A stretch of DNA of 12,719 nt from Candidatus Heimdallarchaeota archaeon (GCA_016839945.1 JAEOTE010000028.1:1-12719), one strand, 5' to 3'. Counted from the stretch's first letter, positions 1,747-9,962 are shown. Program-made: numbers and translations. The notes: a model not told the origin generated them from the letters alone.

Positions 1747-1808
1747 TCATATCTTGATATTTCACTTGAAAAGACAAAATTCATATGAGAAAAGATTATT
1801 GTGAAGTC

Positions 1809-3101
1809 ATGAAAGCAATAATCAATGTAAAAATATATGATTATGAAACCTATATAGAAGATGGTTATTGTATTTATGGTAAGGAAATCATTGAAGTTGG
1901 AGAGATGAAGAATTTTCCTGAATATGATGATGAAATAATCGACGGGAAAAACAAAATCCTTCTTCCAGGTTTGATTAATTTCCACACTCATATCTATTCT
2001 ACACTTGTACGTGGAGCTTCCATTCCTTTTAATCCAAAGACCTTTAAAGATATTTTAGAGCAACTTTGGTGGAAATTTGATAGCAAGCTTGATAATACAT
2101 CTACTTTTCATAGTGCTATGGTTTATGGTTTAGAATCATTAAAGAATGGAGTAACATCTCTTATTGACCATCATGCTAGTGGGATAGATATTATTGGTAG
2201 TCTTGATGCACTCAAGAGTGCTATTGTTGATAAATTAGGTATGCGTGGGATATTCTGTTTTGAAACAAGTGATCGTTTTAATGTGGAACAATGTATTGAG
2301 GAAAACTTGGCTGGTCTAAAGTATGATTCTTCAGATGCTAAAGGTATGTTTGGTCTGCATGCTTCTATGAGTCTTTCAGAAGAAACTCTCGATAAAGTTT
2401 CTAGAGTTCTCAAAGGTGCATCAATCCATGTTCATGTTGCTGAGAGTTTAGAGGATGAAGAAGATTCTATTAACAAATATAGTAAGAGAGTTGTAAATCG
2501 ATACACTTACTATGGTTTACTAAACAAAGATTCTATTCTTGCTCATTGTGTTCACATTGACGAAGATGAAGCGAAACTAATAATTCAAAATAAAGCTGTT
2601 ATTGCTCTCAATCCAACATCAAACATGAACAATGCTGTAGGATCATTCAACATCAATCTCTTTAGAGAAAATAATATACCTATTATCATAGGAAACGATG
2701 GTTTGGGAACTAATATTGCAAAAGAATGGACTTATTTCTTCTTTGCAGGTAAAGCAGGTATCAAAGATGCAGCTGGTATAGGCTTTGATGAACTACTCAA
2801 ATACATCAATGGTTCTTATGATTACTTTGGTCGTCAAATGGGAATAAAGATAGGAAAAATCAAGGAAGGATATGTTGCTGATTTTGTACTTGTTCCTTAT
2901 ATTAATCCAACAGAAATGGATGAAACCAATGCTTTTGGTCATGTCTTCTTTGGATTATTTGATAACTTCAAACCTTCTTGTGTTATAGTTAAAGGTAAAA
3001 CTCTCATTGAAAATTATAAGAGTAATTTTGATGAGGAAGAGATATATAATAACGCTCTTAATGCTTCCAAAGCTTTATGGGAAAGGTTAGGTGATAATTA
3101 G
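1809..3101 (+). CDS. ssnA: SsnA-like metal-dependent amidohydrolase (purine-catabolism-associated aminohydrolase)
   Basis: PGLINFHTHIYSTLVRG (HxH metal motif), GVTSLIDHHAS (SsnA-type), FGLHAS, HVHVAES, LAHCVH, NPTSNMNNAVG, GND. Start at 1809 (MKAIINVKIYD, preceded by TGTGA) preferred over 1785. Confidence 0.82.
   Translation: MKAIINVKIYDYETYIEDGYCIYGKEIIEVGEMKNFPEYDDEIIDGKNKILLPGLINFHTHIYSTLVRGASIPFNPKTFKDILEQLWWKFDSKLDNTSTFHSAMVYGLESLKNGVTSLIDHHASGIDIIGSLDALKSAIVDKLGMRGIFCFETSDRFNVEQCIEENLAGLKYDSSDAKGMFGLHASMSLSEETLDKVSRVLKGASIHVHVAESLEDEEDSINKYSKRVVNRYTYYGLLNKDSILAHCVHIDEDEAKLIIQNKAVIALNPTSNMNNAVGSFNINLFRENNIPIIIGNDGLGTNIAKEWTYFFFAGKAGIKDAAGIGFDELLKYINGSYDYFGRQMGIKIGKIKEGYVADFVLVPYINPTEMDETNAFGHVFFGLFDNFKPSCVIVKGKTLIENYKSNFDEEEIYNNALNASKALWERLGDN
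3089..3095 (+). promoter_or_regulatory. Ribosome-binding site AGGTGAT for the gene starting at 3102
   Basis: AGGTGAT ends 6 nt before ATG 3102; archaeal-type Shine-Dalgarno embedded in the upstream gene end. Confidence 0.7.
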
Positions 3102-4181
3102 ATGGATCTTTCAGTAAAACTACTAGGATTAGATTTCGATAATCCGTTAGGACCTGCTGCTGGACCTCTTGTTGAAGGTCTAGAAAATATGCAATTCTTC
3201 AACAAAAATTCTTGCGGTTATAATGTTGCAAAAACCATTTCTGTAGAAGGAGCTATAGTTCCTAAACCATGTATTGCAGGAACTTCAAACACTATTTACA
3301 ATTGTGAATTATGGTCAGAGTTGCACTCTGATGTTTGGATAAATGAAATCCTTCCAACAATACACAAAGAAAAGAAAAAACCATTAGTCATTAGTGCTGG
3401 ATATAAAGAAGAAGATTTCAGATACTTAATTCCAAAGCTTGATCCTTTTGCAGATATGTTTGAGATATCCACTCACTATGTTTCAGAGGATTTACTTCCT
3501 GGTATAGTAAAAAGTATTAGAGAAAACACTAATAAACCTGTTTTTATGAAACTCAGTCCTCACATAGATGATTTTCTAGGCTTTGTAAAAACTGTTATCG
3601 ATGCTGGTGCTACAGGAATTGTAGCAATAAATTCCTTAGGTCCTAGTGCTGCAATAGATCTAAAGAATCGTTCAGTTCTTCTAGCTGAAGAAGTATGGAT
3701 AAGTGGTCCATCCATCAAACCTGTAGCTTTGCATAGAGTCTATAAAATTCGAGAAGCTTTCCCTGATATTCCAATTATTGGTGTTGGGGGTATTGGAAAA
3801 GCTGAAGATATTTTAGAGTTCATTCTTGCTGGAGCTGATCTTGTACAGATGCTTTCCTCTGCATTAATTAGAGGGAGAGACTTGTATGATAAGATAATTA
3901 CCAAGCTTCCAACTGCCCTTGAAGAGTATGGTTTTTCATCTATAGAAGAGATAAGGAAAATAAGGAAGGAGACAATTTTCAAACCTAAAGAGAAGATTGA
4001 AAATAATCCTCCTTCATTCAATGATAACTGCACCTTGTGTATGATTTGTGTAAAAATTTGTCCTGCTGGTGCATTAGAAAAAATCGATGATAAGATTGTT
4101 GTTGATAAAGAGAAATGCATAAGATGTGGTTTATGTCAATCTCGATGTCCAGTCGATGCAATTTATGGTGTGTTAACATGA
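3102..4181 (+). CDS. Dihydroorotate/dihydropyrimidine dehydrogenase-family (PreA/YgfK-like) FMN oxidoreductase with C-terminal 2x[4Fe-4S] domain
   Basis: NPLGPAAGP, AKTIS, KPCI, YNCELWSE, KPVFMKLSP, AINSL, ISGPSIKP, IIGVGGI, AGADLVQ; ferredoxin motifs CTLCMICVKICP and CIRCGLCQSRCP. The NxSCP catalytic loop is replaced by EISTHY. Confidence 0.85.
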   Translation: MDLSVKLLGLDFDNPLGPAAGPLVEGLENMQFFNKNSCGYNVAKTISVEGAIVPKPCIAGTSNTIYNCELWSELHSDVWINEILPTIHKEKKKPLVISAGYKEEDFRYLIPKLDPFADMFEISTHYVSEDLLPGIVKSIRENTNKPVFMKLSPHIDDFLGFVKTVIDAGATGIVAINSLGPSAAIDLKNRSVLLAEEVWISGPSIKPVALHRVYKIREAFPDIPIIGVGGIGKAEDILEFILAGADLVQMLSSALIRGRDLYDKIITKLPTALEEYGFSSIEEIRKIRKETIFKPKEKIENNPPSFNDNCTLCMICVKICPAGALEKIDDKIVVDKEKCIRCGLCQSRCPVDAIYGVLT

Positions 4182-5392
4182 GAAAACACATATTGAGATG
4201 TATAAGTTGTAAAAAAGAATTTGAACCAAAACCAGGTCTTTACTACTGTGAAGATTGTGGATATATATTAGGTACTTTAGAAGTTGTTTATGACTATGAT
4301 TCTATTCAAGAAGAAGCTGTTGTAAAAGAAAGGAATTTTGATAAAAAAGCATCTATGTATCAATTTGAATTTCTCTTACCTACTAAACCAAAATTAACAT
4401 TTGATAACGACATTGGTGGAACTCCTTTGTACAAATTCGATCTTTTTGGATTGAAAGATGTACAAGTAAAATATGATTGTTCTAATCCTTCCAGCTCTTA
4501 CAAAGATCGTGCTAGTTCAATAGCTATTAATAGAGCTCTTGATGAGGAGAATGATATTGCTTTTTGTGCTTCAACTGGCAATGCTGCTTCATCCTTAGCT
4601 ATGCTGAATGCTCAAACAGAAATGGACACATATATTTTCGTACCTGCAGCTATCCCGGATGGCAAAAGAGCTCAACTAGAAATATCTGGTGCTAAGGTTT
4701 TTGCAATTGAAGGAACTTATGATGAAGTATATGATTTCTCCTTAGAGTTAGGATTAAAGAAAGGTTGGTACTGTCGTCATGCAGCTATTAATCCTTACCT
4801 TCTTGAAGGGAAAAAAACTGGTGCTTTTGAAATTGTTATTCAGAATGATTTTGATGTTCCAGATTATGTTCTTGTTGGAGTAGGAGATGGAACAGTTGTG
4901 AGCTCTCTTTACAAAGGTTTCTGGGAATTCAAAGAAATAGGATTAACAGATAAGATACCAAAAATAATTGGGGTTCAAGCTGAAGGAATATCAGCTATAA
5001 AGGAAGCTTTTGAGAAAGGGAAACCTTACAAACCTATATCAATTGGAGGGAATACTATAGCAGATAGCATATCTGTAGGGAAGCCAAGAGATGTGATAAA
5101 AGCATGTAAATATGTTGAAGCAAGTGATGGGTATTTCATCTCCCTCACTGATGAAGAGATTCTAGAAGCAATTGTTGATCTAGGAAAAACAACTGGAATC
5201 TTTGCAGAACCAGCTGGAGCAGTGCCTTATGGAGGGCTGAAAAAACTTATTTACGAAGAAAAAATTACTAAATCAGATACAGTTTGTCTTGTTATTACAG
5301 GTAATGGTTTGAAGGATGTTAATGCTGTTCAAGGAAGCATTAGCAGAGAAACATTATCATTTGAAGAAGCTATGAAAAGGTTTGAAGAATGA
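4178..5392 (+). CDS. Threonine-synthase-like (fold type II) PLP-dependent enzyme with N-terminal Zn ribbon; substrate probably not O-phosphohomoserine
   Basis: CISC..CEDC ribbon, NPSSSYKDRA (PLP Lys), ASTGNAASSLA, GVGDGT, GVQAEG, TIADSISVGKP, GIFAEPAGA, ITGNGLKD. True start is most likely 4178 (ATGA overlap with upstream stop, GGTG upstream), not 4115. Confidence 0.85.
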   Translation: MRKHILRCISCKKEFEPKPGLYYCEDCGYILGTLEVVYDYDSIQEEAVVKERNFDKKASMYQFEFLLPTKPKLTFDNDIGGTPLYKFDLFGLKDVQVKYDCSNPSSSYKDRASSIAINRALDEENDIAFCASTGNAASSLAMLNAQTEMDTYIFVPAAIPDGKRAQLEISGAKVFAIEGTYDEVYDFSLELGLKKGWYCRHAAINPYLLEGKKTGAFEIVIQNDFDVPDYVLVGVGDGTVVSSLYKGFWEFKEIGLTDKIPKIIGVQAEGISAIKEAFEKGKPYKPISIGGNTIADSISVGKPRDVIKACKYVEASDGYFISLTDEEILEAIVDLGKTTGIFAEPAGAVPYGGLKKLIYEEKITKSDTVCLVITGNGLKDVNAVQGSISRETLSFEEAMKRFEE

Positions 5393-6747
5393 AATTCATA
5401 TTGAATCGTAAAATAGTAGAAACTAGTGAATCACTAGGAATACATACACTTGATTTTTTGAGAAAAATGGGACTGACAGGTCCAAAAGAAGGCTGCCATG
5501 AAGGTGACTGTGGAGCCTGTATGGTTTTAGTTGGAATTTTACAAGGAGATGAAGTGAAATATAAAGCAATGAATTCATGTATTCTTCCTTTAGGAAAAAT
5601 CGAGGGAAAGCATGTTGTTACTATTGAGGGAATCAACATAGAAGGTTTAAATCCTGTTCAGCAAGCTCTTTGTGATGAAGGTGGTGTACAGTGTGGCTAC
5701 TGCACTCCTGGATTTGTTATAGCTCTTATGTCTTATTTCATGAATGAAGATCTCAAAGATACACCTGTTATTACTGCTGTAGAAGGCAATATCTGCAGAT
5801 GTACTGGATATAACTCAATTCTTCGAGCAGCTGAAATAGCATCATCAACAATTTCTGATTTAGATGATTCTAAAGGTAGAATAAATGCATTAATTGAAGC
5901 AAATTTCTTACCTAATTATTTTTCAGAAATCCCAGAAAAAATGAAGGCAATGAAAGTTCATCCTCAATTAAAGAAAGGCACTTTTGTTGCTGGTGGAACT
6001 GATTTATTTATTAACAGACAAACAGTAGAAAATCCTGTTTTCTTATCTGAACTAGGTTTTGACAAGATTTGGTCAGATGATGATTATATATATGTAGGTT
6101 CTGCAGCTGATATAGAATCCATTCGAACATCAGATGAATTGAATGCTCTTTTCGAAACTGCTCAACATTTTTCCAGAGTTTCAACACTACCAATTAGACA
6201 ACAAGCTACTATTGGAGGTAATGTTGTTAATGCCTCTCCAATTGGTGATCTTACTATTTATTTTCTTGCTTTAGATGCAGATATTAGTCTTAAATTAAAT
6301 GGGAGTAACAGGATTATGAAACTGAAAGATTTCTTCAAAGGTTACAAAATCCTTGATTTGAAAGACGGAGAAATTTTAGAATGGTTTAGAATTAAGAAGG
6401 AGAAAAAGTTGCTATCCTTTGAAAAGGTAGCAAAAAGAATGTATATGGATATAGCTAGTGTTAATAGTGCTTTATCCTTTAAAATTGAAGATAATATCAT
6501 TAAAGATCCTCATTTATCTGGTGGTGGTCTTGCCCCTATACCTTTGTATCTAGAGAAAGCTTCTGAATATCTTCAAAATAAGAAAATCTCTTCTGAAGTA
6601 GTTAAAGAAGCAGCACGAATTGCAGACACAGAAGTTTCCCCAATTGATGACGTCAGAGGAAGTGCGAAATACAAACGTTTGCTTCTTAGACAGTTGATTT
6701 ATGCTCACTTCGTAGAACTCTTTCCAGAATTGGAGGTGTCTCTATGA
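5389..6747 (+). CDS. xdhA: Xanthine dehydrogenase small subunit (2x[2Fe-2S] + FAD)
   Basis: GPKEGCHEGDCGACMV..NSC, QCGYCTPGF, GNICRCTGY; FAD motifs AGGTD and TIGGNVVNASPIGD; C-terminal SPIDDVRGSAKYKR. ATGA overlap with the upstream gene. Confidence 0.95.
   Translation: MKFILNRKIVETSESLGIHTLDFLRKMGLTGPKEGCHEGDCGACMVLVGILQGDEVKYKAMNSCILPLGKIEGKHVVTIEGINIEGLNPVQQALCDEGGVQCGYCTPGFVIALMSYFMNEDLKDTPVITAVEGNICRCTGYNSILRAAEIASSTISDLDDSKGRINALIEANFLPNYFSEIPEKMKAMKVHPQLKKGTFVAGGTDLFINRQTVENPVFLSELGFDKIWSDDDYIYVGSAADIESIRTSDELNALFETAQHFSRVSTLPIRQQATIGGNVVNASPIGDLTIYFLALDADISLKLNGSNRIMKLKDFFKGYKILDLKDGEILEWFRIKKEKKLLSFEKVAKRMYMDIASVNSALSFKIEDNIIKDPHLSGGGLAPIPLYLEKASEYLQNKKISSEVVKEAARIADTEVSPIDDVRGSAKYKRLLLRQLIYAHFVELFPELEVSL
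6732..6738 (+). promoter_or_regulatory. Ribosome-binding site GGAGGTG for xdhB
   Basis: GGAGGTG ends 5 nt before ATG 6744. Confidence 0.75.
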
Positions 6748-8984
6748 ACGATTTAATTCCTCCTCACACAAGAGGTGAATCTATCTTTGTTGATGATATT
6801 CCTGAACCTAAAAATATGCTTCATGTAGCTGTTTTCATTTCAAATATTCCACATGGAAAAATAATAAATTTGAATATTGGAGAAGCAGAAAAATATGAAG
6901 GGGTTGTCAAAGTTATTACTGCTAAGGATATTCCAGGTGAAAATCAACTTGGAAGAATCATTCAAGATGAAGAACTTATTGCAGAAGAAAAGGTAGATTT
7001 CATTGGGCAACCTATAGTAGTTGTTTATGCAAAAACAAAAGAACAAGCAAACAAAGCTAAAGATTTAATCAGTGTAGAATTCGATGAACTCCCAGCAATC
7101 TTTGATCCTAGGGAAGCTGCGAAAAAAGGTGCATTGATAGCTCCATCTCGAACTTTTACTTTGGGAGATGTTGATTCAACATGGGATAGTTGTGAAACCA
7201 TTGTTGAAGGTAGAGTTGATTCGGGTGGACAAGAACACGTCTATATGGAAACTCAAGGATGTTTAGCTATCCCTGAAGAAGATGGAAGATTGTTATTATA
7301 TTCAGCTACCCAAAATCCTTCCACAGTTCAAAGTACTGTCTCTGATATTTTAGATTATGATATGAATAAAATAGAAGTGGATGTAAAACGGATAGGTGGA
7401 GGTTTTGGTGGAAAAGAAGACCAAGCAACAGCTTGGGCAGCAATTTGTGCTTTAGGATCATATTATACAAAACAACCTGTAAAATTAGTACTTGATAGAC
7501 ATGAAGATATGATTGTTACAGGTAAACGTCATCCTTATTCAACAGATTACAAATTAGGTTTGGATAAAGATGGAAAAATCCTAGCTTTTACAGCTGATTA
7601 TTACCAAGATGCTGGTGCAGCTGCTGATCTTTCTACAGCTATATTGGGTCGAACACTGTTTCATGTGACAAACGCATATTTCATACCCAATGTTCGAGTT
7701 ACTGCTTATTCATGTAAAACGAATATAGTCCCAAATACTGCTATGCGTGGTTTTGGTGCTCCTCAAGCAATGTTTGTAATTGAATGTATTTTATCTCATG
7801 CTTCTGAAGTATCTAGTATTCCTGTTTCAGTTCTTCAAGAAAAGAATCTGCTCAATGAGGGAGATCAATTTCCATATGGTATGCAAGTAGAAAAAACAAC
7901 TGCAAGAAGAAGTTTCTCACAAGTCATTGAGGATTCTAGATTTCATGATTTAGTAAAAGAACAAGAAGAATTCAATAAAGAGAGTCGCTTCATCAAAAAA
8001 GGTATTTCAATTATGCCTATATGTTTTGGAATTTCTTTCACAGCTACTCACATGAATCAAGCAGGTGCTCTAGTTAATGTATATTGGGATGGGAGTGTGG
8101 GTGTGAGCACTGGAGCAATCGAGATGGGTCAAGGAGTTAATATGAAAATTAAAACTATTGCTGCTCGAGCACTTTCCATAAAACCTGAAAGAATTCGAAT
8201 TGAGAGTACTAATACTACTCGAGTCATAAATACTTCTCCAACTTCTGCAAGTACTGGAGCTGACTTAAATGGAAAAGCAACAGAAATCGCTTGCAAAAAG
8301 ATTATCGAGCGATTATTGAATGTCGCAGCTGAGAAGCTTGGACAAGGTGTAGTATCTTTTGAAAATGAAATTGTTTTACTAAATGGTAAAAAGACTGAAC
8401 TTACATGGGAAAATCTTGTTTGGTCAGCTTATCTTAGTAGAGTAAATCTTGCAGCTCAAGCTTTCTACGCAACACCTGGAATATATTTTGATTCTGAGAA
8501 AGAAAAGGGAAAACCTTTTGCTTATCATGCATTTGGAACAGCTGTTACTGAAGCTTCTGTTGATTGTTTAAGAGGTACTTATACCATCGATAAGGTTCAT
8601 GTTGTTCACGATGCAGGAAGGAGTTTGAATTATTTAATCGATCTTGGTCAAGTTGAGGGAGGATTAGTTCAAGGAATTGGTTGGTTGACTCTTGAAGAAC
8701 TTCAGTATGAAAATGGAAAATTAATTTCAGATTCTCTTGCTACATATAAGGTCCCAGATATTCATTTTGCTCCTGAAATCACAGTAAAATTCCTTGAAGA
8801 TGTAGATAATCCATATGCAGTTATGAAGTCAAAAGCAATAGGAGAACCTCCTTTTATGTATGGAATAGGTTCATACTTCGCAATAAAAGATGCTGCGCAG
8901 AAATTTAGAAATGATAAAGATTGGAGTTATTCAGCTCCTCTCACTCCTGAAAAACTTCTTCTCTATCTATATGATATAGAATAA
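6744..8984 (+). CDS. xdhB: Xanthine dehydrogenase molybdopterin-binding subunit
   Basis: GGQEHVYME, RIGGGFGGKE, DLSTAILGRTLFH, TAMRGFGAPQ, FGISFT, EMGQG, DLGQVEGGLVQGIG, SKAIGEPP. Equivalents of bovine XOR Q767, E802, R880, F914, F1009, T1010 and E1261 are all present. Confidence 0.96.
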   Translation: MNDLIPPHTRGESIFVDDIPEPKNMLHVAVFISNIPHGKIINLNIGEAEKYEGVVKVITAKDIPGENQLGRIIQDEELIAEEKVDFIGQPIVVVYAKTKEQANKAKDLISVEFDELPAIFDPREAAKKGALIAPSRTFTLGDVDSTWDSCETIVEGRVDSGGQEHVYMETQGCLAIPEEDGRLLLYSATQNPSTVQSTVSDILDYDMNKIEVDVKRIGGGFGGKEDQATAWAAICALGSYYTKQPVKLVLDRHEDMIVTGKRHPYSTDYKLGLDKDGKILAFTADYYQDAGAAADLSTAILGRTLFHVTNAYFIPNVRVTAYSCKTNIVPNTAMRGFGAPQAMFVIECILSHASEVSSIPVSVLQEKNLLNEGDQFPYGMQVEKTTARRSFSQVIEDSRFHDLVKEQEEFNKESRFIKKGISIMPICFGISFTATHMNQAGALVNVYWDGSVGVSTGAIEMGQGVNMKIKTIAARALSIKPERIRIESTNTTRVINTSPTSASTGADLNGKATEIACKKIIERLLNVAAEKLGQGVVSFENEIVLLNGKKTELTWENLVWSAYLSRVNLAAQAFYATPGIYFDSEKEKGKPFAYHAFGTAVTEASVDCLRGTYTIDKVHVVHDAGRSLNYLIDLGQVEGGLVQGIGWLTLEELQYENGKLISDSLATYKVPDIHFAPEITVKFLEDVDNPYAVMKSKAIGEPPFMYGIGSYFAIKDAAQKFRNDKDWSYSAPLTPEKLLLYLYDIE

Positions 8985-8993
8985 AAAATACTA

Positions 8994-9962
8994 GTGTTTA
9001 TTATGAATGAAGAACATTATTGGAAAACTACATTGACAGAACTTGAGCAAGGAAAGCATGTTGTTTTAGTAGTTATAATAGATAGGAAAGGATCTGCACC
9101 TAATGTTCCAGGAGCAAAGATGTTTGTAACTAAAAGTAATGTTATGGGAACAGTAGGTGGAGGAAACTCTGAACATAAATTACTTAATCGAGCGCGAATT
9201 CTACTGAAAGAAAAAAAGCTATTTGCTGAAAAAATGTATATGGAACATAGTGAAGAAGCTCTGGAAGATAGTTCTGGAATGATTTGTTCTGGTTCTCAAA
9301 CCTTTGCATTGATCACACTAGGAGAAAGAGATATACAAAAAATCAAAGAAATCTGGGAGAGTTACAATAAAGCACAACCTGGTTTATTAACAATAAATGA
9401 AAAAGGCATTTCTTTTGAATCTGATAAAACTACAACACATAGTCATTGTTATTCCGAACAAGAAACTTCTTGGATGTATAAAGAGAATGTTGGAACACAA
9501 GATCGACTTTTCATCATAGGAGGAGGACATGTATCACTAGCACTTTCATGTATAATGGAATTCCTAGGCTTTCATATAACAGTTTTTGATGATAGAAAAG
9601 ATCTACCAACTATTGAATCTAATGTTTATGCTAACGTAAAAAAGATTGTATCCTATGAAGATATTGCAACATACATTCCTGAAGGAGAGAATGTCTATGT
9701 TACAATCATGACCTTTGGACATATTTCAGATGAACTAGTTCTTGAGAAAATCATTTCTAAAAAATGCAGATATATTGGAATGTTAGCAAGTTTAAAGAAG
9801 AAACAACAAGTCTTTGAAAATCTAGAGCAAAAAGGAATTTCAAAAGAACTACTGGATTCTATACATTCACCTATTGGTGTTAGAATTAAAAGCCATACAC
9901 CTGAAGAAATTGCAATAAGTATCGCAGCAGAAGTAATTCAAGTTAAAAATACAGAAGATTAG
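8994..9962 (+). CDS. xdhC: XdhC/CoxI-family molybdenum cofactor insertion chaperone
   Basis: KGSAPNVPGAKM, GTVGGG, GMICSG, IIGGGHVSLAL, MTFGHISD, YIGMLAS, IHSPIG..TPEEIAISIAAE; directly follows xdhB. Start is GTG 8994 or ATG 9003. Confidence 0.92.
   Translation: MFIMNEEHYWKTTLTELEQGKHVVLVVIIDRKGSAPNVPGAKMFVTKSNVMGTVGGGNSEHKLLNRARILLKEKKLFAEKMYMEHSEEALEDSSGMICSGSQTFALITLGERDIQKIKEIWESYNKAQPGLLTINEKGISFESDKTTTHSHCYSEQETSWMYKENVGTQDRLFIIGGGHVSLALSCIMEFLGFHITVFDDRKDLPTIESNVYANVKKIVSYEDIATYIPEGENVYVTIMTFGHISDELVLEKIISKKCRYIGMLASLKKKQQVFENLEQKGISKELLDSIHSPIGVRIKSHTPEEIAISIAAEVIQVKNTED

Follow-up and report, generated by a model that had tools for sequence, protein, structure and literature searches.

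The anaerobic degradation of uric acid was worked out in two studies from 2025 (PMC12507026; 10.1101/2025.04.24.650524). In the pathway that they describe, urate is first converted to 2,8-dioxopurine by a reductive homolog of xanthine dehydrogenase (XDH), called XdhD or, in C. sporogenes, DOPDH; YgfK reduces 2,8-dioxopurine further with NAD(P)H, a step demonstrated experimentally in both studies; SsnA then opens the ring, and HyuA, YgeW or UacY, YgeY and YgeX carry the product on to pyruvate and ammonia. C. difficile has in place of YgfK a PF01180 protein without a flavin adenine dinucleotide (FAD) domain, named UacX (UniProt Q181U4), and PMC12507026 likens this protein to the ferredoxin-dependent enzyme PydAc and proposes that it is a 2,8-dioxopurine reductase with reduced ferredoxin as its donor. 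Here we describe a gene of this kind in 12,719 nucleotides of DNA from Candidatus Heimdallarchaeota archaeon (GCA_016839945.1, JAEOTE010000028.1:1-12719), a stretch which we call the window and which is an entire 12.7-kb contig (C178) of a 3.0-Mb genome assembled in 186 contigs at 88% completeness. The product of the gene, P0001, is probably an enzyme of the UacX type, which would take the place of YgfK, with ferredoxin as its electron source, in the reductive (2,8-dioxopurine) route by which uric acid and purines are broken down without oxygen.

The network analysis in PMC12507026 surveyed bacteria alone and defined UacX as a PF01180 protein encoded within 15 genes of SsnA. P0001 has the PF01180 flavin mononucleotide (FMN) domain, carries iron-sulfur clusters instead of an FAD or NAD(P)H domain, and is encoded directly against an SsnA-family gene in a uricolytic cluster in which XdhABC genes follow; being a PF01180 protein beside SsnA in such a cluster, it is UacX in the published operational sense. 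It differs from the C. difficile protein in its host, an Asgard archaeon as compared to the bacteria of that survey, and in an operon that adds a FAD-type XdhABC and a ThrC-like pyridoxal phosphate (PLP) enzyme. The wider assignment to the reductive pathway draws on the fold, the lost cysteine loop, a link to YgfK, the SsnA context, a longer cluster in closed genomes, the presence of a separate PyrD in the genome and the coupling of the genes. A preliminary description, made from the DNA alone, had proposed a purine-ring reductase possibly driven by ferredoxin, and this interpretation is supported, but it re-derives the UacX proposal of 2025. What is added here is a statistical link to YgfK, a Cys-less signature of two motifs, Tyr126 and His125 as candidate proton donors, and evidence for horizontal transfer into an Asgard lineage.

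The open reading frame encodes a stand-alone protein of 359 residues, laid out as a barrel of the dihydroorotate dehydrogenase (DHODH) fold that would hold FMN (about residues 1-290), a linker, and a ferredoxin domain for two [4Fe-4S] clusters (about residues 305-357). Pfam matches PF01180 (DHO_dh) to residues 3-273 (E 3e-37) and two Fer4 motifs to residues 307-355, and finds no further domain, Pyr_redox_2 included. The cluster cysteines are C310, C313, C316, C320, C339, C342, C345 and C349, and each is kept in at least 90% of the sequences in a family alignment with 26 relatives that are 30-84% identical to P0001. Both the self-contained cluster domain and the lack of a PreT- or PyrK-type NAD(P)H module in the window had been pointed out beforehand, and both hold: Pfam and NCBIfam scans of the window-encoded proteins found no PreT-type, PyrK-type or Pyr_redox_2 module. 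An AlphaFold (AF2) model built on a 26-sequence alignment gives a confident TIM barrel (predicted local distance difference test score, pLDDT, 93.6), and its top matches in the PDB are pig dihydropyrimidine dehydrogenase (DPD), in its FMN and C-terminal ferredoxin domains, and the class 1B DHODH of L. lactis (PyrDB, here DHODB). DHODB (1ep1, 5ksw) and domains IV-V of pig DPD (1h7x) are also the best matches in sequence, at about 30% identity and template modeling (TM) scores of 0.75-0.85, and the FMN-binding lysines and glycines are conserved in P0001.

Where P0001 parts from DHODB and DPD is in its active site, as well as in its partner genes. The catalytic loop of DHODB, ELNISCPNVKHGGQAFG, of which E, S, C and P are invariant in 14 canonical class-1 sequences, corresponds in P0001 to a Cys-less segment some 9-13 residues shorter, the range depending on the alignment. 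The preliminary description had placed a shortened FEISTHYV where the catalytic cysteine belongs, and the alignments to 1ep1 and 5ksw agree. The motif N-x-E-L-W-S-E likewise stands where PyrD and DPD have the substrate loop N-A-x-G-L-x-N, and two of the four pyrimidine-binding asparagines are absent: N67 and N177 are retained, S123 occupies the Asn position next to the conserved Glu, on its C-terminal side, and the Asn of the loop has been lost by deletion. Invariant in all 26 relatives are the FMN-binding K44, K150 and G229-G230, the asparagines N67 and N177, P15, G21 and P22 of PLGPAAGP, N67, E69, W71 and S72 of N-x-E-L-W-S-E, E121, S123, T124, H125 and Y126 of E-x-S-T-H-Y, and W199.

The two motifs also travel together beyond the family alignment. 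When 112 cluster representatives drawn from an all-against-1.8-billion search were classified, N-x-E-x-W-[ST] was never found together with the Cys loop (0/45), and S-[TC]-H-Y was accompanied by N-x-E-x-W-[ST] in 15 of 15. Within the 45 Cys-less representatives the Glu is invariant, a Tyr stands four or five residues after it in 40, and the His is present in 22. The pattern E-x-S-[TC]-H-Y recurs in 29 of 31 full-length relatives from named genomes, with Thr124 to Cys as the sole variation of E-x-S-T-H-Y among the 29 loci; the loop with this Cys, E-V-S-C-H-Y, is that of two loci (L025, L026) in metagenome-assembled genomes (MAGs) of rumen Bacilli. Which residue falls on the position of the catalytic Cys differs by alignment (Y126 with MAFFT, T124 with HMMER, a gap with hhalign). 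Since Tyr126 is invariant in the family, as is His125, and Tyr is the loop residue most kept in the Cys-less group, we infer that proton donation, the task of the cysteine that is absent here, falls to Tyr126, perhaps together with His125; the donors suggested earlier, His, Ser or Thr, would leave this tyrosine out.

With regard to YgfK, the E. coli K-12 protein contains TPVGPAAGP, ELKTV, EKPCID and FNTEWSTE, so the motifs that had been described as YgfK-like are real. Their counterparts, PLGPAAGP, KT (residues 44-45), KPCI (residues 55-58) and YNCELWSE, all lie in the translation of P0001 where they had been reported. An hhalign comparison of the P0001 family with a YgfK profile gave a probability of 94% and E 9.7e-8 over 281 columns, the entire barrel of the YgfK N-domain; ISTHY falls on LSTMH of YgfK, and the large insertions of the latter, about 100 residues in the barrel, fall in loops. 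The canonical PyrD-1B profile reached a probability of 2.6% and E 0.018 against YgfK, and a Cys-type PreA-like profile matched the ferredoxin part of YgfK alone. The YgfK profile is shallow, with 8 close sequences and one 43%-identical Anaerolineales homolog (the YgfK relatives retrieved were enterobacterial and Aeromonas sequences only, all at least 69% identical), and pairwise BLASTP between P0001 and YgfK is marginal (E 9e-4 and 0.002). Judged by the profiles, the resemblance exceeds chance, and the P0001 family would bridge the classical enzymes and the divergent YgfK barrel, whether through descent or through convergence on one substrate.

The likeness to YgfK, or DOPOR (NADPH:2,8-dioxopurine oxidoreductase), extends to the predicted substrate, the pathway step and the partnership with SsnA, and comprises a homologous N-terminal barrel with GPAAGP, KT, KPCI, N-x-E-W-S-x-E and S-T-x-H in common. 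YgfK (IPR017701, putative selenate reductase subunit) is however a protein of 1032 residues that includes a FAD/NADPH module of the GltD type as well as Fe-S domains of its own, and it uses NAD(P)H, whereas P0001, at 359 residues and without Pyr_redox_2, is homologous to the barrel alone of this fusion of about 1030 residues. At the position of Tyr126 YgfK has His229, with a Cys two residues beyond. Short and long forms occur side by side in Chloroflexota: two loci (L041 and L042, the latter an Anaerolineales MAG) encode after SsnA a 303-residue STHY-type barrel without a ferredoxin domain, which in L042 (9995-15501) sits between SsnA and a complete homolog of YgfK (43% identity to that of E. 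coli); a second, 29%-identical barrel paralog follows.

From sequence, fold, motifs, gene context, distribution and phylogeny we infer a donor, a substrate and a route between them. A low-potential donor, probably reduced ferredoxin, would feed single electrons to the FMN of the TIM barrel by way of the two [4Fe-4S] clusters in the C-terminal domain, and FMNH2 would deliver a hydride to C6 of 2,8-dioxopurine, with the proton coming from the short E-x-S-T-H-Y loop (Tyr126 and/or His125) instead of the usual Cys. The purine might be held by the retained N67 and N177 together with the family-specific E69, W71, S72 and W199, and the dearomatised product would be pulled forward through ring hydrolysis by the translationally coupled upstream SsnA.

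The arrangement of the genes is consistent with such a handover (Table 1). The TAG stop of the SsnA-type gene (3099-3101) abuts the ATG of P0001 (3102), the probable start of the ThrC-like gene (ATG, 4178) overlaps the P0001 stop in ATGA (4178-4181), and overlaps of 4 nt join the ThrC-like gene to XdhA and XdhA to XdhB; SsnA, UacX, ThrC-like, XdhA, XdhB and XdhC form a tight operon, and the TAG|ATG and ATGA junctions point to translational coupling of P0001 with the genes on either side. The SsnA-type protein, 31% identical to E. coli SsnA over its full length (E 4e-67), is predicted to work with P0001 by hydrolysing the purine ring once it is reduced.

Table 1. Positions of the operon genes, the P0001 motifs and the flanking reading frame in the window
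Feature	Coordinates	Strand	Basis
SsnA-type amidohydrolase	1785..3101	+	NF005540 359 bits, top match, below 444 cut-off
UacX-type reductase P0001	3102..4181	+	359 aa; Pfam domains, AF2 model, family alignment
PLGPAAGP, residues 15-22, first barrel strand and loop	3144..3167	+	Counterpart PVGPAAGP in YgfK
YNCELWSE, residues 66-73, N-x-E-L-W-S-E motif	3297..3320	+	NTEWSTE at same place in YgfK
FEISTHYV, residues 120-127, shortened Cys-less active-site loop	3459..3482	+	Family alignment, 31 loci, YgfK profile alignment
Eight Cys in two CxxCxxCxxxC motifs, C310-C349	4029..4148	+	Suffices for two [4Fe-4S] clusters
ThrC-like PLP enzyme	4178..5392 (reading frame listed from 4115)	+	PF00291; TIGR00260 189 bits vs 167 cut-off
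XdhA-type small subunit (2x[2Fe-2S] + FAD)	5389..6747	+	TIGR02963 315 bits, below cut-off; Fer2_2, FAD_binding_5, CO_deh_flav_C
XdhB-type molybdopterin subunit	6744..8984	+	TIGR02965 794 bits vs cut-off 849.5
XdhC-type maturation factor	8994..9962	+	PF13478, PF02625; TIGR02964 133 bits, below 161.6 cut-off
SBBP beta-propeller repeat reading frame, open-ended, at least 541 aa	3-1625	-	Weak match to 'PDIAV motif lipoprotein'

The same context recurs among the relatives. In 34 loci of named genomes, from Bacillota, Thermotogota, Mycoplasmatota, Chloroflexota and a few archaea, the relative comes directly after SsnA in about 24, and the loci are rich in HyuA, YgeY, YgeW, YqeA, UacT and Se-dependent XDH or XdhD; among them are two clusters of the C. 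difficile type, those of Clostridium sardiniense and Clostridium sp. K13. The nearest bacterial loci (Tissierellia and 'Firmicutes UBA5201') have the same SsnA-UacX-ThrC-like order with the same overlap. Sixteen related loci encode a homolog of the ThrC-like protein (36-53% identical) and lack any YgeX match within 10 kb, and none of the 4 related loci with YgeX has the ThrC-like gene, so this enzyme may replace YgeX or act on albizziin; the accessible text of the two uric acid studies (PMC12507026; 10.1101/2025.04.24.650524) does not mention it. A housekeeping threonine synthase was considered for this gene and rejected, since two further ThrC-like loci exist in the genome and bacterial uricolytic clusters have conserved the cluster copy.

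The host is, by its gene content, a Heimdall-group Asgard archaeon: the closest database relatives, at 77-91% identity, are named Heimdallarchaeaceae or Heimdallarchaeota, and among its proteins are homologs of ESCRT-III (Snf7) and of actin that score above the Pfam cut-offs. Of 30 other genomes in its family, 24 have the UacX gene, two of these being single-contig, and none of 30 genomes searched in sister families within the order and class has it. Contamination or mis-binning of the 12.7-kb contig was rejected on account of this distribution, single-contig genomes included, and of a GC content of 34% in the window against 32% in the genome. In the two closed family genomes the cluster is longer and runs without interruption through a Se-dependent XDH (TIGR03311, 895 bits), YgeY (630 bits, like the former above cut-off), a YgeW-like carbamoyltransferase, a CysK-like protein, a HyuA-like hydantoinase, SsnA, UacX, ThrC-like, XdhA, XdhB and XdhC.

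A maximum-likelihood tree with canonical PyrD as its root groups the Heimdall sequences in a single clade within a clade of Bacillota (Shimodaira-Hasegawa-like approximate likelihood ratio test, SH-aLRT, 100), which is itself nested among sequences of Bacillota, Thermotogota and Mycoplasmatota. Monophyly of the archaeal sequences (Heimdall, Hadarchaeum and Thorarchaeota), a group chosen after the tree had been seen, was rejected by the approximately unbiased (AU) test (p = 0.0002). Because the Heimdall UacX nests inside Bacillota sequences, the simplest reading is that the ancestor of this archaeal family received the gene horizontally from Bacillota-like bacteria, and at least SsnA and the ThrC-like gene were probably acquired along with it.

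The window is not the only purine locus of the genome. On contig C168 (3696-9410) lie a carbamate kinase (52% identical to YqeA), a Se-dependent XDH (TIGR03311, 888 bits, above cut-off) and a MocA-like cytidylyltransferase; a 361-residue protein of the same locus has a C-terminal 2x[4Fe-4S] domain and an N-terminal part that matched no family. Hydantoinase-like genes are found on contigs C126 and C149. The one on C149 (1-2124), which resembles hydantoinase/dihydropyrimidinase genes and is truncated at the contig end, lies beside an F420-dependent luciferase-like oxidoreductase; an F420 enzyme of this type is proposed in PMC12507026 as the 2,8-dioxopurine reductase of Chloroflexota.

Several observations weigh against the assignment of P0001 to the 2,8-dioxopurine pathway. 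The operon has no ferredoxin gene. In this 88%-complete assembly YgeX was not found, the best YgeW match is a carbamoyltransferase of just 25% identity, and a YgeY ortholog was found neither here nor in three of the four other searched genomes of the genus, the remaining one having YgeY about 15 kb from its UacX; the downstream pathway, as far as can be read from the genome, is thus incomplete or different. To our knowledge, no activity has been published for any enzyme of the P0001 family. The Methods in the accessible text of PMC12507026 describe a UacX-SsnA assay, a result for which was not found in that text. Orthology to C. difficile UacX was judged through clostridial proxies, the C. sardiniense and Clostridium sp. 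K13 proteins, which are 36% identical to P0001, as Q181U4 is not among the 80 genome loci of relatives. The proxies carry the STHY motif, and their group and the larger P0001 group are branches of one 56-row subtree of the tree, which also holds all other STHY clades except the Hadarchaeum and Thorarchaeota groups. Lastly, by sequence the family resembles canonical PyrD (hhalign E 2e-67) much more than it does YgfK (E 1e-7), so the YgfK-like motifs could be convergent.

Of the alternatives the one that fares best, unlikely as we think it is, would have P0001 reduce another N-heterocycle, for instance xanthine, 6,8-dioxopurine, 8-oxopurine or urate, or act on the product of SsnA and not before it. 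The evidence for the substrate consists of gene context and of motifs shared with YgfK, several downstream genes are missing in this genus, and the FAD-type XdhAB is unlike the XDH of the nearest bacterial clusters. Distant paralogs without STHY (L044, L045) also adjoin SsnA-like and HyuA-like genes, which suggests that the fold is used for more than one ring substrate. Against this stands the selectivity of YgfK, which among the three dioxopurine isomers acts selectively on 2,8-dioxopurine (10.1101/2025.04.24.650524) and has precisely the substrate-loop motifs in common with P0001, and the genome moreover has the Se-dependent type of XDH that makes 2,8-dioxopurine in C. sporogenes.

Alternatively, P0001 might be a ferredoxin-dependent dihydropyrimidine dehydrogenase for uracil or thymine, as is PydAc of Clostridium chromiireducens (PMC7332683), and to this we give very little credence. 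The general architecture is indeed the same, with a stand-alone FMN barrel and ferredoxin-type domains and without FAD or NADPH domains; PydAc takes electrons from reduced ferredoxin or viologen, as P0001 is predicted to do from ferredoxin, and both would dearomatise an N-heterocycle reductively ahead of an amidohydrolase step. The top structural match is DPD, and hydantoinase/dihydropyrimidinase-like genes lie near relatives. However, PydAc reduces uracil and carries four clusters in two ferredoxin domains (PMC7332683), whereas P0001 has one such domain, and the window has no PreT. The Cys and two Asn of the pyrimidine site are gone, a comparison made with canonical DPD and PyrD and not with the sequence of PydAc. 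P0001 scores 116 bits against the PreA model NF006183 with its cut-off of 335, its neighbours are SsnA and XDH and not PydB or PydC, and its N-x-E-x-W-S motif never occurs together with the Cys loop.

The public annotation, by which P0001 would be a class-1 dihydroorotate dehydrogenase (pyrD) that serves to make pyrimidines, is hardly credible: its best NCBIfam matches are PyrD models, but all are below curated cut-offs (NF005574, 163 bits against 269; TIGR01037, 158 against 270), the loop with the catalytic Cys or Ser base is absent, among the archaeal families searched the gene occurs in one only, unlike a core biosynthetic gene, and the genome has its own PyrD-1B beside PyrK on contig C82 (336 bits with NF005574; 344 with TIGR01037, above cut-off), so P0001 is not the biosynthetic enzyme.

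Returning to the UacX-type assignment, the motifs have a practical use. Public records name the relatives 'dihydroorotate dehydrogenase (fumarate)' or 'dihydrouracil dehydrogenase (NAD+)', just the kind of pyrD/preA misannotation that had been anticipated for P0001, and such proteins could be relabelled by the rule of N-x-E-L-W-S-E plus E-x-S-T-H-Y in the absence of the Cys loop. The motifs, which the accessible text of PMC12507026 does not mention for C. difficile UacX, also name candidate residues (E69, W71, S123, T124, H125 and Y126) and connect the short enzyme of the ferredoxin type with YgfK, the large one of the NADPH type. This leads us to speculate, tentatively and on somewhat less than even terms, that UacX and the YgfK N-domain make up a distinct Cys-independent branch of purine-ring reductases within the DHODH superfamily (N-x-E-(L)-W-S-E and S-T-(H)-Y/H, with a Tyr/His pair as proton donor), that YgfK arose by fusion of such a barrel to a GltD-like NADPH module, and that the Heimdall Xdh is used for purine fermentation through this pathway.

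For the biology of these archaea, one Heimdall family would possess a complete, bacterially derived cluster for uric acid fermentation with a xanthine dehydrogenase embedded in it, which bears on the reading of archaeal Xdh as an answer to oxygen stress. A 2025 preprint on cultured Heimdall relatives proposes that their Xdh makes uric acid as an antioxidant (10.1101/2025.02.26.640444); the gene order described here hints that Xdh in these archaea may serve purine catabolism instead. The XdhAB of the operon is of the two-subunit, FAD-containing type (TIGR02963 and TIGR02965, slightly under the cut-offs), and the archaeal operon looks mosaic, since this XdhAB shares just 27-29% identity with the XDH encoded after UacX in the closest clusters of bacteria. 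Upstream of the operon, and divergent from it, lies the SBBP-repeat reading frame, on the side where closed genomes of the family have HyuA.

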